DNA from: Escherichia coli
GTDB lineage: Bacteria > Pseudomonadota > Gammaproteobacteria > Enterobacterales > Enterobacteriaceae
Direction: 5' to 3' (one strand)
DNA: 64,000 nucleotides
Assembly (NCBI RefSeq): GCF_041886205.1
Contig: NZ_CP169029.1
Below the pieces are notes generated by a model. It worked only from the letters and a program-made list of their open reading frames with translations. It was not told the origin of the DNA and searched no databases. Positions 1-15,946 of this stretch are shown here, piece by piece. Both the position numbers and the translations under genes were made by a program. Position 1 is the first letter of the stretch; each line of letters starts with the position of its first letter.

Positions 1-651
1 GCTCAAGATATCGGTAAACTGCATTCATCGAGGAAAGTCTCGCCAGATTGGTATTCCAAGTTACCAATCCCTTGGAACAAAACTGTTACTTGGATCGATA
101 GTTCGAGCCCTAATGAAGCAGGTGCAGAAGAACATAAGGGTAATGGTCGTTACTATAATCAACGAGAAGTCCGGCTACTGCTAGAGGCTTTGCAGTCATT
201 GTCGAGTGATGGCTGCATTGCACAGCTTGAGCAAACTATTACCACAGAACAGCCATATCCTATTGGTATAATCACAATGTATCGTCAGCAAAAAGAGGAA
301 ATTGACAATGCTATCAGTCGGGCTGAATGGGCTGCATCGTTACGTGGTTTGATCAAGATCGATACCGTTGATTCATATCAGGGCCATGAAAACAAGATAA
401 TTATCCTCAGTCTGGTTCGCGATAATCCCAACAAACTACAAGGTTTCCTGCGCGACGCGCCGCGAATAAACGTTGCTATTTCGCGAGCTCAAGAAAGGTT
501 ATTGATTCTGGGAGCAAGGCGTATGTGGTCAAAGACCAATAATGATTCAGCACTTGGAAACGTTCATGAATTTATTAGTAAACAGGTTGCAGTAGATGAA
601 CCCAACTACCAAATCCTGTGTGGTCAAAGTCTGCTTGGAGATAACAACTAA
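1..651 (+). CDS. SF1 (Upf1/DNA2-like) helicase, C-terminal part only; 5' end lies upstream of the window
   Basis: Frame 1 is open from position 1 to the stop at 649-651. Translation carries helicase C-terminal motifs (DTVDSYQGHE, INVAISRAQERLLILG) resembling the C-terminal helicase core. Confidence 0.6.
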   Translation, partial: AQDIGKLHSSRKVSPDWYSKLPIPWNKTVTWIDSSSPNEAGAEEHKGNGRYYNQREVRLLLEALQSLSSDGCIAQLEQTITTEQPYPIGIITMYRQQKEEIDNAISRAEWAASLRGLIKIDTVDSYQGHENKIIILSLVRDNPNKLQGFLRDAPRINVAISRAQERLLILGARRMWSKTNNDSALGNVHEFISKQVAVDEPNYQILCGQSLLGDNN

Positions 652-2198
652 TGTCAGAACCACGTCTGGGTAATCTGATTACCGTTTTACTACCTGCGCG
701 TAGTTACAAGATCAACTGCGCTTTGACCACTGAAAAACTGATGCCTGGAATTGAACAGTTTGCATGTCGCTTGCTGCTGATTTTTGATCAACTCTATCCC
801 AGCGAGTTACAGAATTACTTTGGTCTAACTGATCGTGAGCGAGAGGTATTGCTTGATGGGTTGCTGGCTAACAGACTGATCAACATTAATCCTGATGGGC
901 ATATTGAGGCTAGCTCATTCCTACGTAAGCATGCAGCTAATAATGGTGGGAAGCCAAGTTTAGTTAAATATCAAGAATGTACGGAGGAAGTTGCATTCGA
1001 TCTACTAACTCTTTCGATATGTAAACCGCAACCAAATCGTCGTTTTACTTCTGGACTGCCAGAGCTATTGCCGCGGCATCAGATCGGGGGAGATGCTGCT
1101 GCGGTAACAGAGGCTTTTAGTTCCCAGTTTAGGCACCATCTTTTGCTCAGCCGCAACAGCGAGTATGAGCGTCAACGGACTAAATTATATAAGATAATGG
1201 GCTGTAGTTCGCATGAGATGGTGCAGCTCCCAATAGAGATAGAGGTTAGCTACGGTGTTTCTGCTGGGAGCATTGAGCCGCAGAAATTTACTCGTTCCTA
1301 TGAATATTTAGGTAACACCCGGCTGCCGCTTTCAAACGAGCTGGAAGCTCATATCGCAGATTTTTTGGGAGAACATAAACTAGATGAATTCGGTATCGAC
1401 TGTGAAGATTTCTGTAAACTAGCAAATGATAAAGTGTTGTTACAATTTGCTAATGGTTATAAGTTCAACTATTCCGGCTGGATAGAGGCTCGTGAACAAC
1501 GTAAAACTGGCTACGGTACTTCATTGACTACCGGCATGTTAGGGGCTGTTTATTTGCCGCACAATTCTAAGCTGTTCATTAGTATGTTGCATAATGCATT
1601 ACGTGATTATATAGGTAAAACAGCTCCAAAAGCGCTGTGGTATAGCAGTAAAGTACCACTGTGGGGAGCTAATGGTAGTCAACTTTCGCGTTTTACTCGC
1701 GCTCTAGGCGATATACTTGGCAATTATGCCGATGATAAGATTGCTCGCATTTCGCTTTTACACTCAAGTGCAGATGAAGGTGAAAAACGTCAAGAGCGTA
1801 AGCGGCACTTAGGTCGTTTTCCTACCGGTATTGGCCTTACTTCAGAGGCTAAATTTGATCGTTTGGAGATCCTCTTAATTCCTGATGTGATTGCTTTGGT
1901 GCAATACCACGGTCAACCTAATTCTGATAGTGCATTAACCCTGCCGATTGGTTATATAACTGTTGAGCCAGAGCGTTTAGAATTACTTAAAAAACTAATG
2001 ATTAAGCGAACTGAAGGGGCTGTTGCAACCATTACTTGGTCTGAATCAAAATTTGAAAATTTAGCTTCGCTATTACCTGTTGAGTTTCTGATTAAACTGA
2101 ATAAGAAAAGCGGTGAAGATGTGGATGCTGCAATAAAAAAAATGCAGATCTATAACCGTGCTGAAACCGCACGGGCAATTTTATCGCTACGCAAGTAG
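651..2198 (+). CDS. Hypothetical 515-aa protein, translationally coupled to the upstream helicase
   Basis: ATG at 651 overlaps the helicase stop (TAATG); GGAG 13 nt upstream. Long uninterrupted ORF with no catalytic motif I can recognise. Confidence 0.6.
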   Translation: MSEPRLGNLITVLLPARSYKINCALTTEKLMPGIEQFACRLLLIFDQLYPSELQNYFGLTDREREVLLDGLLANRLININPDGHIEASSFLRKHAANNGGKPSLVKYQECTEEVAFDLLTLSICKPQPNRRFTSGLPELLPRHQIGGDAAAVTEAFSSQFRHHLLLSRNSEYERQRTKLYKIMGCSSHEMVQLPIEIEVSYGVSAGSIEPQKFTRSYEYLGNTRLPLSNELEAHIADFLGEHKLDEFGIDCEDFCKLANDKVLLQFANGYKFNYSGWIEAREQRKTGYGTSLTTGMLGAVYLPHNSKLFISMLHNALRDYIGKTAPKALWYSSKVPLWGANGSQLSRFTRALGDILGNYADDKIARISLLHSSADEGEKRQERKRHLGRFPTGIGLTSEAKFDRLEILLIPDVIALVQYHGQPNSDSALTLPIGYITVEPERLELLKKLMIKRTEGAVATITWSESKFENLASLLPVEFLIKLNKKSGEDVDAAIKKMQIYNRAETARAILSLRK

Positions 2199-2412
2199 CA
2201 TTTATATTGCAACGAATAAATTTTTCTAGGTTGCTATGAACTAGCTAAAGGGCAACAAATAGATAAACGGCGTTATTCATGTCAAATGAGATAATGTTAA
2301 ATTGATAGGGATTTATACCCCGCCGGCCATTTTGAATGGTCGGAGTTGTTATAAACGTTAAACCGCCCCGGAAATCCTGGAGACTAAACTCCCTGAGAAA
2401 GAGGTAAACAGG

Positions 2413-2739
2413 ATGACTAAAAATACACGTTTTTCCCCCGAAGTCCGTCAACGGGCAGTTCGTATGGTTCTGGAAAGTCAGGGCGAATATGACTCACAAT
2501 GGACAGCAATTTGTTCTATTGCCCCTAAGATTGGCTGTACACCGGAGACTCTGCACGTCTGGGTACTCCAGCATGAGCAGGATATTGGGGGCGGTGATGG
2601 TGGTTTCACCACCACTGAACGTCAGCGTCTGAAAGAGCTGGAACGTGAAAATCGTGAACTGAGCCGCAGTAACGATATCCTTCGCCAGGCTTCCACTTAT
2701 TTTGCGAAGGCGGAGTTCGACCGCCCCTGGAAAAAATAA
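2413..2739 (+). CDS. IS3-family transposase OrfA (IS629 OrfA-like, 108 aa)
   Basis: Translation MTKNTRFSPEVRQRAVRMVLESQGEYDSQW...LKELERENRELSRSNDILRQAS matches IS629/IS1203 OrfA as I recall it. Confidence 0.75.
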   Translation: MTKNTRFSPEVRQRAVRMVLESQGEYDSQWTAICSIAPKIGCTPETLHVWVLQHEQDIGGGDGGFTTTERQRLKELERENRELSRSNDILRQASTYFAKAEFDRPWKK

Positions 2740-3118
2740 TGCCACTGCTGGATAAGTCGCGTGAGCAGTACGGGATCGGACCGGTATGCAGTGAACTGCA
2801 TATTGCCCCGTCAACGTATTACCACTGTCAGCAACAGCGACATCATCCTGATAAACGCAATGCCCGTGCGCAGCGTGATGACTGGCTGAAGAAAAAGATA
2901 CCGTGCGTATACGATGTGCGTAAAGTCTGGCGTCAGTTGTTTCGGGAAGGTATCAGAGTGGCCAGATGCACTGTGGCACGTCTCATGGCGGTTATGGGGC
3001 TTGTCGGTGTTCTCTGGGGTAAAAGGTCCGCACTACCGTCAGCCGGAAAGCCGTTGCCGTAGACGACCGCGTAAACCGCCAGTTCGGGGCAAAGTCGTGG
3101 GTGGCTGATTTTACTTAC
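2739..3118 (+). pseudogene. IS3-family transposase OrfB, truncated and frameshifted
   Basis: Begins MPLLDKSREQYGIGPVCSELHIAPSTYYHCQQQRHHPDK like IS629 OrfB, but is short of a few residues versus the recalled sequence, stops after 107 aa, and continues in another frame (RQFGAKSWVADFTY) before homology ends. Confidence 0.6.
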
Positions 3119-3690
3119 GGTGTGCCCGGAGTTCAGGGTGAGCACGGATGCTGAAATGAACCATGAGTCTGTCTGGAATATGGAACAGATAACTCATGAC
3201 GAGAAGCCCAACAATCCCACCGGGTGTGACTGTGGTGAACCTGAGCGACTGTGACCTGCGGCATTCCCTAAGGATGATGTAACCCGCTGACAACGGGGAT
3301 TGAGGCGAGATCACTAAGCCGAGATGATCCTCAAGGTTGAGTGCTGAAAGGCTGAAGAACATGAACCCGTTAATCCGCCTCTGTGGGCTGAAAACGTCAC
3401 CACGGCCTACATGATCTGACAGGTCGTGCAGAAGTAACTGTCTGCGACACGTATGCGCGGGTCAGTCAAAGGTGTTCTGACATGTATGCAAAACACCGGG
3501 ACAGCAACGCCTATCACGCTCACGTTGCTGACTTCTGTCAACTTGCGGCAAGCAAGGACAAAGAGTGCGACGGGCAGCCTCCTCAGTATGTATGAGTTCA
3601 GACAGGTGAACTGGGGAAGGTCAGCGACGGATGTTAAGGAGGCAGTAAGCGTCAACGGAGCACCGTATTGACGCTTATTTATTGGTGAGA
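3119..3690 (+). mobile_element. Candidate group II intron 5' fragment (domain I-like structured RNA) inserted in the IS OrfB remnant; no intron-encoded protein ORF
   Basis: Starts GTGTGCCCGGAG...GGGTGAGCACGG immediately after the IS OrfB FTY codons, resembling the GUGYG...GGGUG start of bacterial group II introns. GC-rich, non-coding in all frames. Group II introns are known to target IS elements in E. coli. Confidence 0.25.
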
Positions 3691-3698
3691 ACTACGTT

Positions 3699-3900
3699 TC
3701 ATGGCAGGAGTTCGTCAACACGGTTGGATAGTAATGCACGGCTCAGTTCGACACCCTGTCGGGCAAAGATTTCACTCTGACGATACAGTGGCAGGTGTTC
3801 GCAGTATTTTCCCGTTAACACGCGGGCAAGTAATCCGGGGCCGCGATACCACGCTCTATCGGGCAGGACGGCGCCAATGATAGCATTTATACAAGCAATT
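3699..3900 (-). pseudogene. IS66-family transposase (TnpC) internal fragment
   Basis: Minus-strand translation ...GLLARVLTGKYCEHLPLYRQSEIFARQGVELSR... matches the conserved HLPLYRQSxIxARQGV block of IS66 TnpC, then hits a stop. Far too short for an intact gene. Confidence 0.45.
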
Positions 3901-4227
3901 CTGGGAGCTTATAGATTGTGTGCAAAACTTTTGATAGCAGGAGGTTACAACAGTATTGATGAAAAAGATCATTCAAATCGATTTATATATTTTGTTAATG
4001 TTATCTGTTTTCAATCTAATAACCACGAATATAGCTAATTATAGGATGATTACTAGTTTTGCTACCCTATCAACCAAACGTTCACCGGACATTAGAAAAC
4101 ATGGAAATTTCTTGTTTTTAAATGCTTTTTACACCAATAGAAAAATTTACATTCCAAAATCATTAGTCTTTGCGTAATCAAAAGATGTAATGGTTTTTTT
4201 CCTTACTACTTCTAGATAATCCGCCCA

Positions 4228-4345
4228 CTACAGCAACATCAACTTACGCTCATCTAAATGCTCCGCCTTATGGATATAAGCTACCCGCACTGAATTACAT
4301 TCCATGCGGCTCATCAGACGTCCAGTTGCTTTACTGTCTTCAGGG
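4228..4345 (-). pseudogene. P4-type integrase 3'-terminal fragment (remnant of an older island)
   Basis: Minus-strand translation ...ATGRLMSRMECNSVRVAYIHKAEHLDERKLMLL* aligns with the C-terminus of the intact integrase at 11064..12326 (...AVERQMSHQERNGVRAAYIHKAEHLEERRLMLQ...). No upstream catalytic region. Confidence 0.5.
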
Positions 4346-4584
4346 GGATGCTCTTGTAATCCCAACCTCTCGTGCTTTCTGAGCATAACACATCCATGTT
4401 GCTGCGATTATCTCTTAAACCCGTCCTTACCATTTTTATTGATACGATAAGGAACCTTCATCATACATGATCGATTTTGTCGATCGATTCGATCGAATTT
4501 TCTCTTTTTACCCTGTCTTTTACATGGTTTTAAAATAAGCACCCCATTTATTGTTCGGGGAAAGTGATAGCAGAGGTAACTGAA

Positions 4585-5313
4585 ATGAAAAAGATTATTG
4601 CGGTTTCAGCACTTGCTGTGGCAGGCATGTTTTCAGCCCAGACCCTGGCTGATGAGAGCAAAACAGGCTTTTATATGACCGGTAAGGCGGGAACTTCCGT
4701 TTTATCTCTTTCCAACCAGCGTTTTGTCGAAGGTGAAGGAGAGTGGGCGGACAGATACAAAGGTGACGATGACCATGATACGGTATTCAGTGGCGGTATT
4801 GCGGCCGGTTATGATTTTTATCCGCAGTTCAGTATTCCGGTTCGTACAGAACTGGAGTTTTACGCTCGTGGAAATGCTGACACGAAATATAATCTTTATA
4901 AAGACGACTGGTCGCGTGGTGACCTGAAGAACGAGGTGTCAGTCAACACTCTGATGCTGAATGCGTACTATGACTTCCGGAATGACAGCTCATTCACACC
5001 ATGGGTATCTGCAGGGATTGGCTACGCCAGAATTCACCAGAAAACAACCGGTATCAGTACCTGGGATTACGGGTATGGATACAGTGGTCGTGAATCGTTG
5101 TCACGTTCAGGCTCTGCTGACAACTTCGCATGGAGCCTTGGCGCGGGTGTCCGCTATGACGTCACCCCGGATATCGCTCTGGACCTCAGCTATCGCTATC
5201 TTGATGCGGGTGACAGCAGTGTGAGTTACAAGGGCGAGTGGGGCGATAAATATAAATCAGAGGTTGATGTTAAAAGTCATGACATCCTGCTTGGTGTGAC
5301 TTATAACTTCTGA
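4585..5313 (+). CDS. Outer-membrane beta-barrel protein (OmpA-like/opacity-type family), 242 aa
   Basis: Signal peptide MKKIIAVSALAVAGMFSAQTLA, alternating aromatic/hydrophilic beta-strand pattern, C-terminal ...LLGVTYNF ending in Phe. The ORF-track start at 4564 is probably an upstream extension. Confidence 0.7.
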   Translation: MKKIIAVSALAVAGMFSAQTLADESKTGFYMTGKAGTSVLSLSNQRFVEGEGEWADRYKGDDDHDTVFSGGIAAGYDFYPQFSIPVRTELEFYARGNADTKYNLYKDDWSRGDLKNEVSVNTLMLNAYYDFRNDSSFTPWVSAGIGYARIHQKTTGISTWDYGYGYSGRESLSRSGSADNFAWSLGAGVRYDVTPDIALDLSYRYLDAGDSSVSYKGEWGDKYKSEVDVKSHDILLGVTYNF

Positions 5314-5390
5314 CGACACTGCTTCTGAATGATAATTGCGCATATTTCTGCAATTAAGATAATTACGTATTTCTGTAATTAAAAAGGAAC

Positions 5391-5435
5391 ACCCTGCAGT
5401 AATATTATACTGCAGGGTTGTCTGTTATCTGCTTT
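5391..5435 (+). terminator. Putative rho-independent terminator after the outer-membrane protein gene
   Basis: Perfect 11-bp inverted repeat accctgcagta/tactgcagggt followed by a T-rich tract. Confidence 0.4.
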
Positions 5436-5488
5436 ACAGGATATTTCTGATTTTTATTATCTTATTCTCTTTATATTAAGATATTTCG

Positions 5489-6988
5489 ATGAGTATCATA
5501 AAACTATTTTTTCCGGACAATACATCCCGAATTTTATTGTTTTTATTCTTTTTTGTTGTTTCTGTCATAACCACAATTGCATGCGGATACACTGAGAAGA
5601 ATACCACCGGGAATGTGTTGCTGCTGTTCTTTCTTCTGCTTCTTGCACACAGAAATACCCTCACATCCATTACAGCGCTGTTATTTCTGTTCTGTTGTGC
5701 ACTGTATGCGCCTGCCGGTATGACGTACGGTAAAATCAACAACAGTTTTATTGTCGCGTTGTTGCAGACCACGGCTGATGAGGCAGCGGAGTTTACCGGG
5801 ATGATTCCTGTTTATCATTTTCTGGTCAGTGCCGCGATTCTGGTATTCATGGTGATTTTCTGGCGAACACACCACCGCGGTCACCGTAACTGGCTGGCAC
5901 TGCTGCTATTCGTATTATGCTCTGTAAACAGCTGGCCGTTGCGGATGGTTAAAGGAACCGTTGTGGGGACAACTGACACATTGCGTGAAATGCAGCGTTA
6001 TAAACAACTGAGTCAGCACGGGGCTGACAGCTGGAAAATCCTGCCGGGTGTACCGTTGTATGACACGATTGTTATTGTTACTGGTGAGAGTGTGCGCAGG
6101 GATTATATGTCGGTATATGGCTATCCCGTGCCAACCACACCGTGGCTGAATACTGCTCCCGGTTTATTTATTGACGGCTATACATCGGCAGCAGCCAGTA
6201 CCGTACCTTCCCTGAGCCGGACACTGATTTATGACTATGAGCAGAACCCTGATTCCGGCAACAACGTGGTGGCGCTGGCAGCAAAATCAGGATACAGCAC
6301 ATGGTGGATATCCAATCAGGGAAAACTGGGAGAGCATGACACACGCATCTCTGTTATTGCTTCTGATGCGGAGCATACCGTTTTCCTCAAGAAAGGCAGC
6401 TTCGCTTCCCGTAAAACGGATGATATGTTGTTGTTACAGGAAACAGAACGTGCGCTGGCGGATACATCCTCTCCGAAGGTGATTTTCCTGCACATGATTG
6501 GCTCTCATCCGAATCCGTGTGACCGACTTAACTCCTGGCCGAATCATTACCTGGAGCAGTATCCCCGAAAGATTGCCTGTTACCTCGCCAGCATCAGTAA
6601 ACTGGATAACTTTCTCGGTCAGCTTGATGGTATCCTTCGCCGGCATTCCCGTCATTTCGCCATGCTTTACTTTTCTGACCATGGACTGTCGGTCAGCGAC
6701 AGCGCTAATCCTGTTCATCATGATGGTCATGTGCAGGGAGGCTACAGCGTTCCCCTGATTATTACCGCCAGTGACATCACGTCTCATCAGTCCGTCAGCA
6801 GAAAAATCAGTGCCCGTCATTTCGCAGGTATTTTTCAGTGGCTGACCGGCATTCGTACTGAAAATATACCGCCATTCAATCCGCTGACAGACGAAGATAA
6901 TGAACCCGTTATGGTTTTTAACGGGGAGAGGAATGTACCGGCAGACAGTCTGAAACCGCAGCCTCTGATTCTTCCGGACAGAAGATAA
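5489..6988 (+). CDS. Sulfatase-family phosphoethanolamine transferase-like inner-membrane protein (EptA/YhbX-like), 499 aa
   Basis: N-terminal multi-span hydrophobic region followed by a soluble domain with sulfatase-like signatures (IVTGESVRRDY, HMIGSHPNPCDRL). Exact start codon uncertain. Confidence 0.65.
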   Translation: MSIIKLFFPDNTSRILLFLFFFVVSVITTIACGYTEKNTTGNVLLLFFLLLLAHRNTLTSITALLFLFCCALYAPAGMTYGKINNSFIVALLQTTADEAAEFTGMIPVYHFLVSAAILVFMVIFWRTHHRGHRNWLALLLFVLCSVNSWPLRMVKGTVVGTTDTLREMQRYKQLSQHGADSWKILPGVPLYDTIVIVTGESVRRDYMSVYGYPVPTTPWLNTAPGLFIDGYTSAAASTVPSLSRTLIYDYEQNPDSGNNVVALAAKSGYSTWWISNQGKLGEHDTRISVIASDAEHTVFLKKGSFASRKTDDMLLLQETERALADTSSPKVIFLHMIGSHPNPCDRLNSWPNHYLEQYPRKIACYLASISKLDNFLGQLDGILRRHSRHFAMLYFSDHGLSVSDSANPVHHDGHVQGGYSVPLIITASDITSHQSVSRKISARHFAGIFQWLTGIRTENIPPFNPLTDEDNEPVMVFNGERNVPADSLKPQPLILPDRR

Positions 6989-7096
6989 TCATGTCGGTAT
7001 GAATGTTATAATTAAGGACCGTGCAATAATAGCCATTCCATTCAGCCATCTTACGCTCGAAAACAATCGATAAGATGGCTACTCACCATTCCTGCT

Positions 7097-10000
7097 CTAA
7101 ACCTGACGCCTCTCAAGACTATTATAAATAGCCTCAATCTCACCCTTCAGGTTATCACCGCAATAAACCATTGAGGTATCGTATCGTTCATATCGCGCTT
7201 CCCGTGTCGCACTAAACCAGTTGAACGATCCCACGCACAGCAAACCATCATCACCAATAACAATTTTGCTATGAACACGGTTTACCAGCTTTGTAGCAAT
7301 ACCCAGCGCATTCAGTTTCTCCAGCGCCGCTTTAAAGTTTTGCTGCTTCTCTTTTCGCTTCTCAAAATCATTATGTTCAGTGTTGTAGCTTCTGTCAGTG
7401 ACTATCGTGACGTTAATTCCACGTGAACACGCCGCAATCATGGAATCAAGAAAACCTGTTTGCTCCAGCCTTTGCCAGGTCAGCCATGGAGAAACTATCG
7501 TGATGTGTTTACTGGTATTTTCAAATGTCTGATTCAGGAAATTATCATGTTGCTCCACACCATGAAGTGTGTAGATTTTGGTCCCGGAGGTTTTTAAATC
7601 CTTACGCTCTTTATAATCAAAAGAGAGCGCATTCTTCTCTGACTCAAAGAGGTATTTTGCCAGTAATCCCCGTGGAGATGAGGCTGGCTGGACCTCAAAC
7701 AGGTCCATATCGCCGAAGACCAGAAAACTGTCCTTCGCACGGGAGACTGCAACATTCAGCATGCTGTTATCGCTATCAATAAACCCGCCGTCTTCATGTT
7801 TTGAATAGACTGGCGAGAATATCACAATCGCTCTTTCCGCTCCCTGAAGAGAGTGCACGGTGCCCACTGTGAGCGACTTTTCATTCGAGCCTGTACTGAT
7901 ACCTTGTTTGCCCAGCGCCTGTTTGATAGTGGATACCTGAGCGCTAAAAGGCGTCACGATACCGACAACTTCATGAAGCGATTTACCGTAATGCGCTTCA
8001 ATATTTTGTTGGTTCTCTGCCAACCAGACCGCTATCGTTTCAGCCTCAAGCAAATTATATCGACTTCCACTACTTGCCAGCTCTCCTTTACCATCAATAT
8101 GGAGATACCCCATTGCGGGCATTAAATTGCTCTCTTCACGCCCTCTTTTAGGCAACAACTTACCGTGATAGCAGAGCGTATTACAGTATCCAATAATATT
8201 GTCGTAGCACCGGCGGTGTTCATATAGGGACATACCACGAGCCAGTTCGGGATCATATTGATAGCGCGAAGCAAACTGCGCTATTTTCATAACGCTGCCA
8301 GATGCGGCACTTTTACCAAGGTCTGCGATTGCCGTATATTTCTCGGTAATCTCTTCTTGCGTACTGCCAGACAGAATTTTTTCCGCCAGCATGTTACCGA
8401 CATCAATCGCAGGAGCAATACTCCATATTGGCGGGAGCTGCTCCGTATCGCCAATCACTAATGCCTTCTTAGCTAATGCAAACGAGGCAGCAGCCACTTC
8501 AGGAAGCACCTGCCCGGCTTCATCGACAATGAGTAAATCGGCAAAATCATACAAATAACTTTTCTCGAATTTACGCTGTCCTTTGTGCTCACTTATCTGC
8601 ATATTGCCGGGCAGCATATAGCATGTCATCACCACACATGGAGTGAGTTTCATTCGACGTTGCCAACGGGCAGTTACCCCTTTAGCGCCTTTTTTCTTCT
8701 TCTCTTCCTGCAGATCATCAATGCTGGCCATATCCATCAGCCAACGACCTTCCCAGTAGTGAGTCGTCAGTAAAAATGCAGGGAAGCGAATCTGCGTATC
8801 AGCCAGTTCATCGGCCTGTGAGAAGCTCAGTTCCTCGTCGCCCTCATACCCTAAATTAAGAGCCAGTCTCTGCCACTCCTGAACCGCCTGCTGTTCTTTA
8901 AGAATGATTTCATGGGCGGAATCAATCTGCTGCCGGTATGTTGTTTGCTCGCGCTCAGCGGAATTGAGCAGCCCATCAATATTACGTTCGATAGTTTCAG
9001 GATCAGACCACTGATTTCCTGCAATCAGCGCACCTAATTTATCTTCGAGAAACAGCTGTATTTGGTACTGTCGCTTACTGCGAACCACCGGGAGCCAGGA
9101 AAATAATGAATAGATCAGTGATTCACCGGCGCGATATTTTTTCCATTCCGTTTTAGCACTTTTCAGTAGAGTGATTTTTTGTTCTTGTCCGGAAAGTAAT
9201 TTATTTAAATTATCGAGATATTGCTCAATGTCGTTAGCAATAAGCTCACGCGCAGCCCGTACCTGGCTTAACGTTTGCCATGTTGCGTTCAGTCTTATCA
9301 GTTGCTCGGATTTTGCTGCCAACTGACCATGCAGGAGTTCAATGACCTTTTCAGGGGATGAACAATCTTTTTCAGGAAAGGCTGCCTTAGCCTTCTCCAG
9401 ATAAAACAGCAGTGCATCCTCTACATACTCTTTTGACTCAACCTGGTTGAAGAAATCTTCAGTTTGATATTTTTTGGCTGCCTCAGCTTTACGAGTGCTT
9501 GAGGGAAAATAAGCGCCGAAGCTTTTCAGCTCAGGTAACCATCGTCCGGCCATTGCACCAGTGCCCTGTGAAAAATCTTTCCCGAACGCTTCGATAATGT
9601 TCGTTACAGCCTGGTTGTTCGTTGAAGTCGCGATAATTACCGGAGGCTCAGATTTTTCGAGAGCCGCTCTGGCCCACTGCGTGGCGATGATAGAAAGCAC
9701 CAGCGTGGTTTTTCCGGTTCCCGGAGGTCCATTAACAGCAAGGATATCGCCATGTCTTGCATCCAGAAAATGGCTTAAGGCATCGCGCTGAGCCTTTGCC
9801 AGCGGAAACTTATCTCCGGAGTGTCCAAGCCTGTCGCTGAATTTTGCGCCTGGGGCCAGCAAAGACTCTGCAGCATGAACCTCTCGCGAGGCGAAGCGAT
9901 TGAAGAGCGGCACAACCTTCTTGCAAACAAGCAGGTGATCATAAAGAGAAAGGATATGGAAACAGGCACCGCCAGATTGCGCCGTTTTAACAATATAACC

Positions 10001-10612
10001 GTGCTCAGCGAGTTCATATTGCTCAGGATTTTTAATCCAGTCGCCGGCAACGTTCTTCAGCAGCCTCTCTGAATCATCCAGATATTGACGCCACTCCTGC
10101 TGCAAGGCTGCATATCGTGCTTCCCGTTCTTCATCCGTTTCGGCAGTCTTATCAATGCCGTCATCAAAGTTGATAGAGAACGAGGTATGGATTGTCTTGT
10201 ATTTGTCATACTGCCCAATCTCACCAATCGAAAATGCTCCTTTTGGCAAAGGTTCAAGCAGGTCTCTGGGAATGGAGGTCGCTGGCGTCGGATATAAAAA
10301 ACCCTCACGGCTTAGCAAGGCTGGCGTCACTATCGGGGTAACAATATCAGGCGCGCCTGCGGAACGGTCCTTACCATGCTGCAGTAACCGGAAATAAACT
10401 TTTGGGCGCAAGATGACATCGACCGTTTCGACATCGTCTTTTTCTCCCTTAAAAAATTTACTGACAATCGCTTCGTCAAGACGTCCCGCCGCTATCCCAT
10501 GCCAGTGAGTGAAATTTTTGGCGTCTTTCCGTTCAAAACTGCCCTTTCCTGACTCAGCATCCGCAAGCGAGTTGCGCCAGTATGAGGTAAACCCTAAAGC
10601 ATTTTCATCCAT
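7097..10612 (-). CDS. SF1 helicase (Upf1/DNA2-like) fused to a C-terminal PLD-family (HKD) nuclease domain, 1171 aa; candidate single-gene antiphage defense protein
   Basis: Walker [15 protein letters not shown]; Walker B/motif [11 protein letters not shown]; [11 protein letters not shown]; C-terminal helicase motifs [14 protein letters not shown] and [16 protein letters not shown]; C-terminal [19 protein letters not shown] is an exact HxK(x)4D(x)6GSxN phospholipase-D motif. ATG at 10612..10610 with AGGA upstream. Confidence 0.75.
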
Positions 10613-10665
10613 TACCAGTCCTGTGACTCAATGAAATCCATTGATTTATCGAATATAAAACCACC

Positions 10666-10688
10666 ATATGGACAACTATTGTCCATAT
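10666..10688. promoter_or_regulatory. Perfect 10-bp inverted repeat (atatggacaa-cta-ttgtccatat) 54-76 bp upstream of the helicase-PLD start; candidate operator
   Basis: Palindrome read directly from the sequence, located in the upstream region of the minus-strand gene starting at 10612. Confidence 0.3.
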
Positions 10689-11009
10689 TGAAAAAATTGG
10701 ATGCAATGTTTTGTTTATAATTCGATATCAAATGTACTGGTTGTACAAGGTTCAGAACACAAGCACATTCAACAGTACGTCAGGACTATTGATTTCATAA
10801 CAGTGAATACATTTTTTACCGTTTATAATGACTGCCTGTGTTGGACAAGGATACCAGAACAGCCGAAAACACCGGGGGTTATTACCTGCTCTCATGGAAA
10901 CCAGATATTCCTGGTGCTAATCACAGTCATAAATAGCCTGAAGAACATGACGAAGGGACTTTAATGGACGCCGGAGTAACTTGCCAGAACATCAATCTTC
11001 GTCATCATT

Positions 11010-11060
11010 TACAAAGAAAAATAATCAGTTAAAGCAGTCCGGGCTGATTGCCCGGACTGC
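11010..11060 (-). terminator. Putative rho-independent terminator downstream of the integrase
   Basis: Perfect inverted repeat gcagtccggg/cccggactgc immediately after the integrase stop, followed on the minus strand by a T-rich tract. Confidence 0.45.
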
Positions 11061-11063
11061 TTA

Positions 11064-12326
11064 CTATTTTAATGGATTGTTAATTTTTGCATATTCAAAC
11101 GGACTGATACCCTTCTCCCGGTTCGCATCCAGAAAATCGGCCCACCATTGCAACATCAGTCGCCGTTCTTCCAGATGTTCTGCTTTATGGATATACGCAG
11201 CACGTACACCATTACGCTCCTGATGGCTCATCTGACGTTCCACAGCATCGCGGGACCACAAACCTGATTCAATCAATGCACTGCACGCCATCGCCCGGAA
11301 TCCATGGCCACAGACATCCTGGGTTGTGTCATACCCCATCACCCTCAGGGCTTTATTTACAGTATTTTCACTGATTGGTTTACGCGGGTCATGTGCTCCC
11401 GTAAAGATCAGACCATTTTCACCAGCCCATGTCTGTAGTTCTGCCAGTATGGCTACAGCCTGTTTGCTGAGTGGCACAAGATGTGGTGTTCGCATCTTGG
11501 AGCCCCGGTGTGAGAATTTTACGCCAGGCAGAGGTTCGCGTTCGGCTGGAATAGTCCACATGGCATTGTCAATATCAATTTCAGACCAGCGGGCGTATCT
11601 GAGTTCACTGGAACGAATAAAAACCAGTAAATTCAGCATAACTGCCAGTCGGGTGACAGGCTGGCCTTTATAACCGTCAATACGCGACAGAAGTTCAGGC
11701 AGGCGTGAAAGATCCAGTGCAGGGCGATGCTGGCGTTTTACCGTGGTCAATGCACCAGCCATATCCAGAGCCGGGTTATATCTGATGATGCCAGACTGTA
11801 CGGCATAACGCATTACAGCAGATATTCTTTGCTGCAGACGACTGGCGATTTCATAAATTTGTTTAGCTTCTGCAGCACGAACAGGGATAAGCAGGTCCGG
11901 GGTACTGAGTGTTGTGATATCCCGGTTGCCGATAAAGGGGAAAACGTGTGTCTCGAGGCTTTTGAGTACTTTATCGCTGTGTGATTGTGCCCATTGTTTA
12001 TTACTGGCATGCCAGCGTCGTGCAATATGTTCAAAAGAGAGTTGTAAATCAGGGACTACTTTTTTAGCTCTTTTCAGTTCGCAAGGGTCAATCCCCTCCG
12101 AAATCAGTTTTCGGGCCTCATCCCGTTTTGTACGAGCTTCGGAGAGAGAAACTTCTGGATACACACCAAGTGCCAGAGTCTTCTCCTTACCCAGAATACG
12201 ATAACGGAGACGCCAGTAACGGGAACCATTAGGATGAACCAGTAGGAACATGCCAGCCCCGTCAGTGAGTTTATAAGCCTTGTCAGTGGGCTTTGCAGCC
12301 CGGATTTTTGCGTCAGTCAGTGCCAT
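11064..12326 (-). CDS. P4-type phage integrase (tyrosine recombinase), island integrase next to tRNA-Phe
   Basis: Translation from the internal Met: MALTDAKIRAAKPTDKAYKLTDGAGMFLLVHPNGSRYWRLRYR... (typical P4-family N-terminus); C-terminal catalytic region with HGFRAMA...YIHKAEHLEERR. The ORF-track start at 12389 is an upstream extension. Confidence 0.85.
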   Translation of the reverse strand: MALTDAKIRAAKPTDKAYKLTDGAGMFLLVHPNGSRYWRLRYRILGKEKTLALGVYPEVSLSEARTKRDEARKLISEGIDPCELKRAKKVVPDLQLSFEHIARRWHASNKQWAQSHSDKVLKSLETHVFPFIGNRDITTLSTPDLLIPVRAAEAKQIYEIASRLQQRISAVMRYAVQSGIIRYNPALDMAGALTTVKRQHRPALDLSRLPELLSRIDGYKGQPVTRLAVMLNLLVFIRSSELRYARWSEIDIDNAMWTIPAEREPLPGVKFSHRGSKMRTPHLVPLSKQAVAILAELQTWAGENGLIFTGAHDPRKPISENTVNKALRVMGYDTTQDVCGHGFRAMACSALIESGLWSRDAVERQMSHQERNGVRAAYIHKAEHLEERRLMLQWWADFLDANREKGISPFEYAKINNPLK

Positions 12327-12523: not shown

Positions 12524-12599
12524 TGGTGCCCGGACTCGGAATCGAACCAAGGACACGGGGATTTTCAATCCCCTGCTCTACCGACTGAGCTATCCGGGC
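12524..12599 (-). tRNA. pheV: tRNA-Phe (pheV locus by synteny with yqgA-speC)
   Basis: Reverse complement reads GCCCGGATAGCTCAGTCGGTAGAGCAGGGGATTGAAAATCCCCGTGTCCTTGGTTCGATTCCGAGTCCGGGCACCA, the E. coli tRNA-Phe sequence including CCA. Confidence 0.95.
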
Positions 12600-12704
12600 A
12601 ACGGGGCGCATTAAACCTGATTCGCCTCGTCTCGTCAATCAAATTTCTTCAATTTACTGCAGACTGCACAATCTATCATCACTTTGCCGCTATTGCACGC
12701 ATTG

Positions 12705-13412
12705 TCAGGCAAACCAGGCGGTCCAGGCGGCGGAAATCGGCATTGCCAGAAGGAGTGCTGGAAGCATGTTGACCACCGGGAACATTTTAATGCCACAGAT
12801 GCGTAATCCGGTTGCCAGCAGCAATAAACCGCCTACGGCGCTGAAGTCTGCCATCATCGACGGTGTGGTCAGCGGTAATATCAGCGCGGCAGCCCACGCC
12901 AGCGTTAACTGGATGATCAGTAATGGTATACTAATTACCGACACCGCGATGCCCAACGAGCAGGCGAAGATCATTGCCGTAAAGAAATCAAGAAATGACT
13001 TGGCGATTAAAATACTCGGATCGCCGGTCATCCCTTCGTTCATCGCCCCGAAGATCCCGGTGCCGCTGGCGCAAAACAGGACAATAATCGCGACATAATT
13101 CTGAATAAAAGATTCATGCGCTGGCTTCTTACGTGAGTGACGAAACAGATTTTGTGCTTTGGTGACCGCGGTATTGACGCCTTTTTCCAGCAGACAAAAT
13201 TCGCCGATTAATGCTCCAAGTAAGGTTGCTAAAACCATCGCCGGAAGGTTGGCGCATTTCACCACCAGTAAAATACCAATCCCCAGCGATGCCAGACCAA
13301 AAATTGATGTCATGGAGACGCGGATACGTTCCGGTAAGCGTTGGCTAAGTAGTGCACCGAGCACGCCACCCAGTAATACTGCACTTGCGTTGATAAAAGG
13401 ACCGATGACCAC
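12705..13412 (-). CDS. yqgA: Inner membrane protein YqgA (DUF554)
   Basis: Translation [30 protein letters not shown]... matches YqgA. GTG start chosen to give 235 aa; the ORF-track ATG at 13433 is an alternative. Confidence 0.8.
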
Positions 13413-13810
13413 AAAAGTTCCCGTTAGCTGCATTGTCTGATTTTCTTATTATGACCGTTTGGTGCCGTCGATGGCTTGTTTGTTCGCAAAGTCCTGGCTT
13501 GCACGCTCTGATGAAAGGTGCCATGATTGCGCGAATTTTCTCCTCTCTGTACGGAGTTTGCCCGATGCATGCCACCTCCTTACATTCTCTCGCTTATCGC
13601 CGTTTCGCGCGAAACTCTTCTCTTTTTATGCTACTGCTCATGCGGTGAAGTTAACGCACGCTCACTGCAGGACAACAGTAAAATCAGAGCGTTTCTGCTT
13701 TTACTGATGTCTGGCGGTCGGAGCTGGTGACCAGTTTGACCCATATCTCATGGGGCAGGGTTTTCCACCTTGTCCGGTATTCTTACTTCCCCGAAACGGG
13801 TTTTGCGCTT

Positions 13811-15946
13811 ATGAAATCAATGAATATTGCCGCCAGTAGTGAACTGGTATCCCGACTTTCTTCACATCGCCGCGTGGTGGCGTTGGGAGATACTGATTTT
13901 ACGGACGTCGCGGCAGTCGTCATTACCGCTGCGGATAGTCGCAGTGGCATTCTTACGTTGCTTAAGCGCACCGGTTTTCATCTACCGGTGTTTTTGTATT
14001 CCGAACATGCTGTTGAATTACCTGCGGGCGTTACGGCGGTAATCAATGGCAACGAGCAGCAGTGGCTGGAGCTGGAATCCGCAGCCTGTCAGTATGAAGA
14101 GAATTTACTGCCACCGTTTTATGACACGCTGACGCAGTACGTTGAGATGGGCAACAGCACCTTTGCTTGCCCTGGACATCAACATGGTGCGTTTTTTAAA
14201 AAGCATCCTGCCGGACGCCATTTTTACGATTTCTTTGGTGAGAACGTCTTTCGCGCCGATATGTGTAACGCTGACGTAAAATTGGGCGATCTGCTTATTC
14301 ATGAAGGATCGGCGAAAGATGCGCAGAAATTCGCAGCCAAAGTCTTTCATGCCGATAAAACCTATTTTGTGCTGAACGGCACATCGGCAGCGAATAAAGT
14401 GGTGACGAATGCGCTGTTAACGCGTGGCGATCTGGTGCTCTTCGACCGTAACAACCATAAGTCGAATCATCACGGCGCGCTGATTCAGGCGGGGGCGACG
14501 CCGGTCTATCTGGAAGCTTCACGCAACCCGTTTGGTTTCATTGGCGGTATTGATGCGCACTGTTTTAATGAAGAGTATCTGCGCCAGCAAATTCGCGACG
14601 TTGCGCCAGAAAAAGCTGAGTTGCCGCGCCCGTTTCGCCTGGCGATTATTCAGCTGGGAACCTATGACGGCACTGTCTATAACGCCCGTCAGGTGATCGA
14701 TACCGTTGGGCATCTGTGTGATTACATTCTGTTTGATTCCGCGTGGGTCGGTTATGAACAATTTATCCCGATGATGGCGGATAGCTCGCCGCTGCTGTTA
14801 GAACTTAACGAAAACGATCCGGGGATCTTTGTGACTCAGTCGGTGCACAAACAGCAGGCGGGATTCTCACAGACGTCGCAGATCCATAAAAAAGATAACC
14901 ATATCCGCGGACAGGCGCGTTTTTGCCCGCATAAGCGGTTGAATAACGCCTTTATGCTCCATGCTTCTACCAGCCCTTTCTATCCGCTGTTTGCTGCACT
15001 GGATGTTAACGCTAAAATTCATGAAGGAGAGAGTGGGCGTCGGCTGTGGGCTGAGTGCGTTGAGTTGGGTATTGAGTCGCGCAAGGCTATTCTTGCGCGC
15101 TGTAAGCTGTTCCGCCCGTTTATCCCGCCCGTTGTTGATGGCAAATTGTGGCAGGATTATCCGACATCTGTGTTAGCCAGCGACCGCCGTTTTTTCAGTT
15201 TTGAGCCGGGGGCGAAGTGGCACGGCTTTGAAGGATATGCCGCGGATCAGTATTTTGTTGATCCGTGCAAGCTGTTACTCACTACACCAGGTATCAATGC
15301 CGAAACTGGCGAATATAGCGACTTTGGCGTTCCGGCGACGATTCTGGCGCACTATCTGCGTGAGAACGGCATTGTGCCGGAGAAGTGCGATCTCAACTCC
15401 ATTCTGTTCTTATTAACTCCGGCGGAAAGCCACGAGAAGCTGGCACAACTGGTAGCGATGTTGGCGCAGTTTGAACAGCATATTGAGGATGACTCGCCGC
15501 TGGCTGAGGTGTTGCCGAGCGTTTATAACAAGTATCCGGTGCGCTATCGCGACTACACCCTGCGCCAGTTGTGTCAGGAGATGCACGATCTGTATGTCAG
15601 TTTCGACGTCAAAGACCTACAAAAAGCGATGTTCCGCCAGCAGAGTTTCCCGTCAGTGGTGATGAACCCCCAGGATGCGCATAGCGCTTATATTCGCGGT
15701 GACGTGGAGTTGGTGCGGATTCGTGATGCCGAAGGGCGAATTGCGGCAGAAGGGGCGTTGCCTTATCCACCTGGCGTGCTTTGCGTGGTACCCGGGGAAG
15801 TCTGGGGTGGGGCGGTTCAACGTTATTTCCTTGCACTGGAAGAAGGGGTGAATTTGTTGCCGGGATTTTCGCCGGAGCTGCAAGGTGTTTATAGCGAAAC
15901 CGATGCGGATGGCGTGAAGCGGTTGTACGGTTATGTGTTGAAGTAA
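13811..15946 (+). CDS. speC: Ornithine decarboxylase, constitutive
   Basis: MKSMNIAASSELVSRLSSHRRVVALGDTDF..., 711 aa, matches SpeC. Track ORF has an in-frame N-terminal extension. Confidence 0.93.
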   Translation: MKSMNIAASSELVSRLSSHRRVVALGDTDFTDVAAVVITAADSRSGILTLLKRTGFHLPVFLYSEHAVELPAGVTAVINGNEQQWLELESAACQYEENLLPPFYDTLTQYVEMGNSTFACPGHQHGAFFKKHPAGRHFYDFFGENVFRADMCNADVKLGDLLIHEGSAKDAQKFAAKVFHADKTYFVLNGTSAANKVVTNALLTRGDLVLFDRNNHKSNHHGALIQAGATPVYLEASRNPFGFIGGIDAHCFNEEYLRQQIRDVAPEKAELPRPFRLAIIQLGTYDGTVYNARQVIDTVGHLCDYILFDSAWVGYEQFIPMMADSSPLLLELNENDPGIFVTQSVHKQQAGFSQTSQIHKKDNHIRGQARFCPHKRLNNAFMLHASTSPFYPLFAALDVNAKIHEGESGRRLWAECVELGIESRKAILARCKLFRPFIPPVVDGKLWQDYPTSVLASDRRFFSFEPGAKWHGFEGYAADQYFVDPCKLLLTTPGINAETGEYSDFGVPATILAHYLRENGIVPEKCDLNSILFLLTPAESHEKLAQLVAMLAQFEQHIEDDSPLAEVLPSVYNKYPVRYRDYTLRQLCQEMHDLYVSFDVKDLQKAMFRQQSFPSVVMNPQDAHSAYIRGDVELVRIRDAEGRIAAEGALPYPPGVLCVVPGEVWGGAVQRYFLALEEGVNLLPGFSPELQGVYSETDADGVKRLYGYVLK

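Follow-up and report, generated by a model that had tools for sequence, protein, structure and literature searches.

A helicase-nuclease gene next to the integrase of an Escherichia coli pheV island is very likely a Mokosh type II anti-phage system

The window, that is the whole stretch of 64,000 nucleotides of E. coli DNA analyzed here, carries on its minus strand an intact open reading frame of 3.5 kb (7097..10612), which is assigned to mkoC, the Mokosh type II helicase-PLD gene, on the basis of the ORF itself, the PADLOC MkoC model, Pfam and identity to a verified MkoC. Translation starts at an ATG preceded 6 nt upstream by a Shine-Dalgarno-like AGGA sequence, and yields a protein of 1171 aa (plus stop) and 131.4 kDa that RefSeq labels only as 'AAA domain-containing protein'. 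Directly adjoining the gene, as an earlier note made from the sequence alone had pointed out, are the P4-type tyrosine integrase of the island (11064..12326, minus strand; integrase domain PRK09692 of NCBIfam, 3.5e-74), which matching genomes annotate as a tyrosine recombinase, and a tRNA-Phe (GAA) gene that serves as the island attachment site (12524..12599, minus strand; ARAGORN). The flank beyond this tRNA gene, with yqgA and speC, identifies it as pheV and led us to reject pheU, the site seen in the best megablast match, ZYB39. A repeat of the tRNA-Phe 3' end, which would mark the far end of the island, is not found within the window, and the island therefore extends past the window start.

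Two symmetrical elements lie between the integrase and mkoC. A GC-rich hairpin with a 13-bp stem (11032..11062) immediately follows the integrase stop codon and separates int from the upstream region of mkoC. Closer to the gene, a perfect 10+10 bp palindrome (10666..10688) is located 54-76 nt 5' of the mkoC start; judging from its sequence, it is a candidate regulatory site. A consensus scan of the minus strand from 10613 to 11060 found no sigma-70 promoter for mkoC.

The earlier note had read the protein as an SF1 helicase with a C-terminal PLD nuclease, and this reading holds: the ORF and every helicase and PLD motif that it quoted were found in the 1171-aa protein, and the Pfam families that it expected were all matched, namely AAA_11 (1e-9), AAA_12 (5e-22) and PLDc_2 (1.2e-9; aa 1028-1138). 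All of the following features lie on the minus strand. The protein opens with an alpha/beta domain found only in the MkoC family (aa 1-265; 9818..10612). Downstream come the Walker A motif, or helicase motif I (GPPGTGKT, aa 295-302; 9707..9730), a large and mostly helical insertion in RecA1 (aa 347-655; 8648..9574, from the AF2 secondary structure) that contains five long helices in the segment aa 420-630, and the Walker B motif, or helicase motif II (DEAGQ, aa 697-701; 8510..8524). Helicase motif III is also present and conserved, and RecA2 holds motifs V (QGAERAIV, aa 923-930) and VI ([15 protein letters not shown], aa 954-968) at 7709..7846. The C-terminal PLD nuclease domain (aa 1011-1171; 7100..7582), delineated by Pfam PLDc_2, PADLOC MkoB/DrmC and NucT, contains a single HKD catalytic motif ([19 protein letters not shown], aa 1114-1132; 7217..7273), and the HxKx4D pattern occurs only once in the whole protein, within this motif (HKD at aa 1114-1121).

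Structure prediction, which the earlier note had suggested for confirming the domains, gave a confident AlphaFold (AF2) model (pLDDT 92.9), according to which MkoC would consist of an Upf1-like SF1B core, a helical insertion of ~300 residues and a single-HKD PLD domain. Foldseek matched UPF1, SETX, IGHMBP2, Aquarius and DNA2 (E 1e-16 to 1e-12), with a sequence identity to the eukaryotic helicases of only 12-14%. A PDB sequence search returned no solved Mokosh structure, just distant Upf1-like helicases and a weak NucT match, and nothing in the PDB matches the fold of the N-terminal domain; this domain, for which the earlier note had considered a possible sensing or targeting role, is conserved, confidently folded and occurs only in MkoC-type proteins. 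'Bagel' beta-propeller matches to the HKD segment were rejected as repeat artefacts, and a PHROGs scan of MkoC returned generic helicase families only.

Conservation was assessed across 64 homologues sharing 29-51% identity. In Walker A, P296, P297 and G300 are invariant, while K301 and T302 are kept in at least 90% of the homologues, as is the DEAGQ motif; Q923 and S957 of RecA2 are invariant. The HKD motif follows the same pattern, with D1121, G1128 and W1132 invariant, and H1114, K1116, S1129 and N1131 retained in at least 90%. The RecA1 insertion is the least conserved part of the protein, its identity to the query averaging 27%. PLD-less relatives of ~990-1005 aa also exist, one of them truncated beside an ISL3 element and another followed by a 683-aa ORF.

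A search against defense-system models, also suggested in the earlier note, matched MkoC end to end (PADLOC PDLC03924, residues 1-1169 aligned to positions 1-1135 of the 1136 in the profile, E=0, 1684 bits); for an intact 3.5-kb ORF, such a full-length match far exceeds anything attributable to chance. The experimentally verified MkoC comes from E. coli 5-366-08_S1_C1 (1171 aa, IMG 2586378093, construct SG150; Millman et al. 2022, bioRxiv 10.1101/2022.05.11.491447), and has the same length and the same domain order as the protein described here. Over the first 399 aa, which are all that Table S2 of that study prints, 390 of 399 residues (97.7%) are identical, and none of the nine substitutions (window allele to verified protein: T9A, K55E, I67V, I94L, G152S, R175H, C217S, V233D and T351S) falls in a catalytic motif. 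Among 90% cluster representatives, none was identical to the verified sequence over the 399 residues, the best showing 7 differences. The similarity continues for ~160 nt into the native sequence upstream of the start codon (the ~70 nt closest to the gene being near-identical), where the palindrome is largely kept. By sequence comparison, the gene is thus a canonical E. coli allele of MkoC, and belongs to a system that is already known. The earlier note had left a choice between a type II Mokosh-like protein and a divergent relative; the PADLOC match and the verified homologue uphold the former, and the canonical character of the allele speaks against the latter.

mkoC is an accessory, horizontally mobile gene and not part of the core genome. 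Of 5426 complete E. coli genomes, 888 (16%) carry it, always on the chromosome. The window allele is in the minority, with 29 genomes carrying a version at least 99% identical versus 849 at 95-99%. The gene occupies a slot directly after the integrase of tRNA-Phe islands, the content of which varies: in strain PM4 nothing lies between int and ept, and some related islands with this integrase carry other cargo there. The int-mkoC module is found at pheU as well as pheV, and MkoC homologues are carried by plasmids of several genera. The following features of Mokosh type II are present: a full-length profile match, an Upf1-like core with ATP motifs, a C-terminal PLD domain, close identity to a verified member and accessory mobile status. 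mkoC therefore very likely encodes a Mokosh type II system that protects against phage with a single protein, and is accessory cargo of a tRNA-Phe (pheV) island, located a short way downstream of the integrase gene.

MkoC has relatives in several defense and nucleic acid-processing systems. It shares with Mokosh type I the same Upf1-like type of helicase (PADLOC MkoA, 6.5e-38) and a related PLD domain (MkoB, 1.1e-16). Type I consists, however, of two genes, of which MkoA bears a Ser/Thr kinase domain, whereas MkoC has its own N-terminal domain instead; no kinase domain was found in MkoC with Pfam or NCBIfam and the MkoA profile matches are partial, which excludes type I. A separate type I-like pair lies at 1-2198 of the window, 5 kb away in the same island, and its MkoB-like protein (515 aa) lacks the HKD motif; ZYB39 carries a full-length mkoA (WP_000877065.1). 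In eukaryotes, MOV10L1/Armitage and Zucchini/PLD6 likewise bring together an SF1B Upf1-like helicase and a single-HKD PLD protein on single-stranded nucleic acid, but MkoC fuses both activities in one polypeptide and its reported substrate is ssDNA, not RNA. The PLD domain alone has weak sequence matches to NucT (E 0.001-0.02; 6ehi, E 0.02) and to DrmC of DISARM (1e-6), and shares with Nuc, NucT and DrmC the HxKx4D...GSxN motif in a domain of ~160 residues. Those are small stand-alone proteins, whereas the PLD domain of MkoC is tethered to a helicase in a protein reported to be monomeric. In Nuc, the PLD active site is built by a homodimer. Membership in DISARM was rejected, as the DrmC-like match is its sole sign and no DISARM component was matched among the six ORFs that flank the gene toward the island (190-6985 of the window). 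Finally, the yjhR pseudogene of E. coli K-12 corresponds to the last 338 residues of an MkoC (the end of RecA2 and the PLD domain) and is 66% identical; this truncated relic derives from another allele and lies elsewhere on the chromosome than does the mkoC of the window.

Verified MkoC protects E. coli from phage, and mutation of the Walker or PLD motifs abolished defense by the Mokosh systems examined in the same study (Millman et al. 2022, bioRxiv 10.1101/2022.05.11.491447). A 2025 preprint describes the purification of 'EcMokosh II' (bioRxiv 10.1101/2025.07.10.664194). This protein is probably the verified MkoC, as suggested by its numbering, in which the boundary of the domain constructs 'M1-A995' and 'L996-end' coincides with the A995/L996 junction of the window protein, and by its mass (132 kDa, compared with 131.4 kDa). 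According to this preprint (bioRxiv 10.1101/2025.07.10.664194), EcMokosh II is a monomer by mass photometry (132-138 kDa), and defends solely against the ssDNA microvirus SECphi17, with protection against 0 of 10 dsDNA coliphages. In vitro, it cuts circular ssDNA (M13, SECphi17), nicks plasmid and leaves linear dsDNA uncut; cleavage is lost in the PLD mutant and kept in Walker A or B mutants. The concentration data of the preprint conflict, with activity at every concentration according to the main text but cleavage at 1 uM in the legend of Extended Data Fig. 7. The window allele is intact with all catalytic residues, and phage defense is predicted for it from the near-identical E. coli protein. 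The earlier note was right about the defense role, and its wording of a 'candidate' system was too weak, since the system is already validated and partly characterized.

A plausible mechanism can be outlined. An ATP-driven Upf1-like motor would load on single-stranded nucleic acid that the phage produces and leaves exposed, such as an ssDNA genome or replication intermediates, then translocate 5' to 3' and carry the PLD nuclease onto the strand, leading to destruction of the phage genome. Two MkoC molecules would probably pair their PLD domains on the substrate, because MkoC supplies just one of the two HKD motifs that make up a PLD active site, and the free monomer would thereby stay harmless. 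This dimerization step, proposed by analogy with other single-HKD nucleases, is probable, in contrast to the monomeric state recorded by mass photometry.

The nature of the substrate leaves room for a different reading, in which MkoC acts mainly on RNA, unwinding and cleaving phage transcripts or RNA:DNA hybrids as do Upf1 or, in the piRNA pathway, MOV10L1 with Zucchini/PLD6. Such was the hypothesis of the original discoverers (Millman et al. 2022, bioRxiv 10.1101/2022.05.11.491447); the literature describes domain homology to both MOV10L1 and PLD6, the nearest solved relatives of the helicase core are the RNA helicases UPF1, senataxin, IGHMBP2, Sen1 and Aquarius, and the in vitro substrate panel of EcMokosh II consisted of DNA (bioRxiv 10.1101/2025.07.10.664194). 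Nevertheless, the purified protein cuts ssDNA and the sole reported target phage has an ssDNA genome, and the fold does not fix the substrate, as IGHMBP2 and DNA2, both Upf1-like, act on DNA too; we consider an RNA target rather unlikely.

Many helicase-nuclease defense systems act by abortive infection, and the nicking of plasmid in vitro, with no evident sequence specificity, would fit an effector that, once triggered, nicks or degrades host DNA and kills the infected cell. Yet E. coli chromosomal and other dsDNA remained uncut in vitro, and a literature search found no toxicity or culture-collapse data for Mokosh II, making this scenario quite improbable. As for a housekeeping Dna2-like repair enzyme or an island maintenance gene, the helicase-nuclease fusion, the DNA2-like fold and the adjoining integrase could be invoked, but carriage by only 16% of complete genomes, the empty or differently filled slot behind the same integrase, and the anti-phage activity demonstrated for a near-identical protein render this role exceedingly improbable. 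Defense against phage, by attack on exposed single-stranded phage nucleic acid, remains the preferred interpretation. It could be extended by assuming that the N-terminal domain is a sensor or loader of a new type that chooses the nucleic acid, that the nuclease is activated by substrate-induced pairing of single-HKD monomers, and that the nearby type I-like pair cooperates functionally with mkoC instead of sharing the island by chance, a combination that we regard as unlikely.

The discovery value of the locus is small, mkoC being a routine PADLOC/DefenseFinder match whose near-identical counterpart has already been validated and purified, and the correction of the RefSeq label 'AAA domain-containing protein' to MkoC is a useful outcome. 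For the family, Mokosh II draws attention to an ATP hydrolysis that is required in vivo yet dispensable in vitro. For E. coli, the variable slot behind the integrase of pheU and pheV islands is a convenient natural site in which to search for further defense cargo.

The mkoC gene (7097-10612, minus strand) is an uninterrupted reading frame of 1171 codons that starts with ATG, with AGGA 6 nt 5' of it. An earlier note had proposed a single-gene antiphage defence system, type II Mokosh-like or a divergent relative, from a set of helicase and PLD nuclease motifs. Each was located in the translation: GPPGTGKT (aa 295-302), DEAGQ (aa 697-701), QGAERAIV (aa 923-930), a quoted stretch of 15 residues (aa 954-968), and the 19-residue PLD motif (aa 1114-1132), which holds the sole HxKx4D of the protein. 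The three Pfam families anticipated there were all matched, namely AAA_11 (aa 272-491 and 679-729), AAA_12 (aa 776-969, 5e-22) and PLDc_2 (aa 1028-1138, 1.2e-9).

The type II reading was borne out at full length by the PADLOC MkoC (Mokosh type II) profile, which aligns its positions 1-1135 of 1136 with residues 1-1169 (E=0, 1684 bits); the type I profiles MkoA (6.5e-38) and MkoB (1.1e-16) cover the protein only partially. RefSeq names the product 'AAA domain-containing protein' because NCBIfam holds no specific model for it, the partial matches to IGHMBP2, PLuB, ProA and NucT being well below cut-off. The 'Mokosh type II' construct SG150, from E. coli 5-366-08_S1_C1, is marked verified, and its MkoC (IMG 2586378093) also has 1171 aa (Table S2, Millman et al., bioRxiv 10.1101/2022.05.11.491447). 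Over the 399 residues printed for this verified MkoC, the window protein shows 9 differences (97.7% identity), none of them within a catalytic motif, and the native upstream sequence of the construct aligns as well, over the ~160 nt nearest the start codon. 'EcMokosh II' was divided into M1-A995 and L996-end and has a mass of 132 kDa (bioRxiv 10.1101/2025.07.10.664194); the window protein carries A at 995 and L at 996, and its calculated mass is 131.4 kDa. From numbering and mass, we infer that 'EcMokosh II' is the same protein as the verified MkoC. The identity over 399 residues and the matching junction and mass make the window gene an allele of a protein already validated and purified.

The mkoC start codon is preceded, at a distance of 54-76 nt, by a perfect palindrome of 10+10 bp (10666-10688; ATATGGACAA / TTGTCCATAT), which the verified construct largely keeps in its own native upstream sequence. 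The palindrome may serve as an operator; nearby, no promoter consensus turned up. The stop codon of the integrase is followed directly by a GC-rich hairpin (11032-11062; stem of 13 bp), likely a terminator between int and mkoC.

Among 1.84 billion cluster representatives, 1129 proteins matched with E<=1e-30; in many of them the alignment spans residues ~1 to ~1170, with 31-52% identity. Across 64 full-length members, residues of Walker A and DEAGQ, motif III (G721, D722, Q725), motif V (Q923, G924, R927), motif VI (S957, R958) and the PLD motif (H1114, K1116, D1121, G1128, S1129, N1131, W1132) are invariant or at least 90% conserved. Conservation extends to the N-terminal region, where Y11, D18, R116, L119, P121, Y224 and H264 are invariant and the signatures 'YWRNSLAD' and 'IPRDLLEP' include invariant residues. 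The AlphaFold2 model built from this alignment is confident (pLDDT 92.9, pTM 0.88) and shows the domain boundaries sought in the earlier note: an alpha/beta N-terminal domain (aa 1-265), a RecA1 domain split by ~300 mostly helical residues (aa 347-655, five long helices lying between 420 and 630), RecA2 (about aa 836-975) and, at aa 1011-1171, a compact PLD domain. Foldseek matched the model to UPF1, senataxin, IGHMBP2, Aquarius, Sen1, DNA2, coronavirus nsp13 and ZNFX1 in the PDB (E 1e-16 to 1e-10); these are Upf1-like SF1B helicases, and the modelled mkoC core is of that type.

The window allele is intact, with a single HKD motif and an Upf1-like SF1B core. SF1B enzymes translocate 5' to 3', and PLD-family active sites comprise two HKD motifs, as established for Nuc and related single-HKD nucleases. 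The motor would load on exposed single-stranded phage nucleic acid, then translocate 5' to 3' and deliver the PLD nuclease. Because a PLD-family site takes two HKD motifs and each MkoC offers one, a monomer probably needs another MkoC as its partner on the substrate, a requirement that would restrain MkoC in uninfected cells. Mass photometry showed the Mokosh type II protein to be monomeric, at ~132-138 kDa (bioRxiv 10.1101/2025.07.10.664194). In the same preprint, the legend of Extended Data Fig. 7 reports cleavage at 1 uM, which would fit pairing but lends it slight support, since the main text describes cleavage as robust at all concentrations.

[quoted passage not shown] Defence was later observed against 1 of 11 phages tested, the ssDNA phage SECphi17; in vitro, only ssDNA substrates were cleaved, plasmid was nicked and dsDNA genomes were left uncut (bioRxiv 10.1101/2025.07.10.664194). 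Cleavage of M13 DNA was removed only by mutation of the nuclease site, and the Walker A and Walker B mutants kept in vitro cleavage (bioRxiv 10.1101/2025.07.10.664194). The main rival explanation, which is compatible with DNA targeting, is that MkoC acts on RNA, after the manner of Upf1 or of MOV10L1 together with Zucchini; we found no report of RNA substrates being tried with Mokosh II, and our literature search found no paper presenting a Mokosh II structure or in vivo trigger.

The mkoC gene is mobile and accessory, not a uniform housekeeping locus: of 5426 complete E. coli genomes, 888 carry it (839 at full length), in every case on the chromosome. Most E. coli alleles are 95-99% identical to that of the window; alleles at 94-97% occur in Shigella, Citrobacter, Enterobacter and Salmonella, and more distant homologues on plasmids of Agrobacterium, Acetobacter, Vibrio and Pseudomonas. 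The K-12 pseudogene yjhR (7016-8032 in comparison locus L008) is the C-terminal 338 residues of a different allele, 66% identical, covering the end of RecA2 and the PLD domain. MkoC-like helicases of ~990-1005 aa with the same N-terminal domain and no PLD domain were also observed (5001-7982 in L005; 143-3160 in L006). One ends beside an ISL3 transposase and comes after an ART-PolyVal gene, and the other is followed by a 683-aa ORF of no known kind; such proteins may be truncated forms or a subtype with another effector.

As the earlier note had it, mkoC sits beside an island integrase and a tRNA: a P4-type tyrosine integrase (11064-12326, minus strand) and tRNA-Phe pheV (12524-12599, minus strand), with yqgA and speC beyond (region 12524-15946), an arrangement common to 205 genomes. 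At pheU, on the dicD/dsbD side, strains ZYB39 and GPEC172 have this same module of int, mkoC, the phosphoethanolamine transferase gene ept and a gene for a Tia-like outer-membrane protein. The slot between int and ept (6989-11063; compared in L002 and L003) holds mkoC here, is empty in PM4 and contains a frameshifted TPR pseudogene in STEC1588; mkoC is therefore exchangeable cargo, and the slot, immediately downstream of int, has the look of a hotspot for cargo. A single further complete genome has the 12.6-kb arrangement in full.

The genes for the Tia/Adr-like outer-membrane protein (249 aa) and the phosphoethanolamine transferase (499 aa) (4564-6988, plus strand) accompany the integrase module; the transferase is similar to CptA and EptA and matches MCR families weakly, far below their cut-offs. 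In ZYB39, an additional IS100 lies within the outer-membrane protein gene. Insertion-sequence debris (2358-4400), made up of two fragments of IS3-family transposases (2413-2739 and 2739-3062) and one IS66-like piece (about 3645-3875), separates this gene from a pair resembling Mokosh type I, which the island carries ~5 kb away from mkoC. This pair, which 69 of the 5426 complete E. coli genomes have, comprises an MkoA-like helicase gene of which the window start leaves only the 3' end (within 1-2198, plus strand; PADLOC MkoA 2e-53) and a 515-aa MkoB-like ORF (651-2198, plus strand; PADLOC MkoB 1e-61), whose product lacks an HxKx4D motif and shares just 24% identity with the verified SEC470 MkoB. 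The Mokosh type II system of mkoC is already known, validated and partly characterised; the novelty left resides in its N-terminal domain, in the activation problem posed by a single HKD motif, and in the type I-like pair within the same island.
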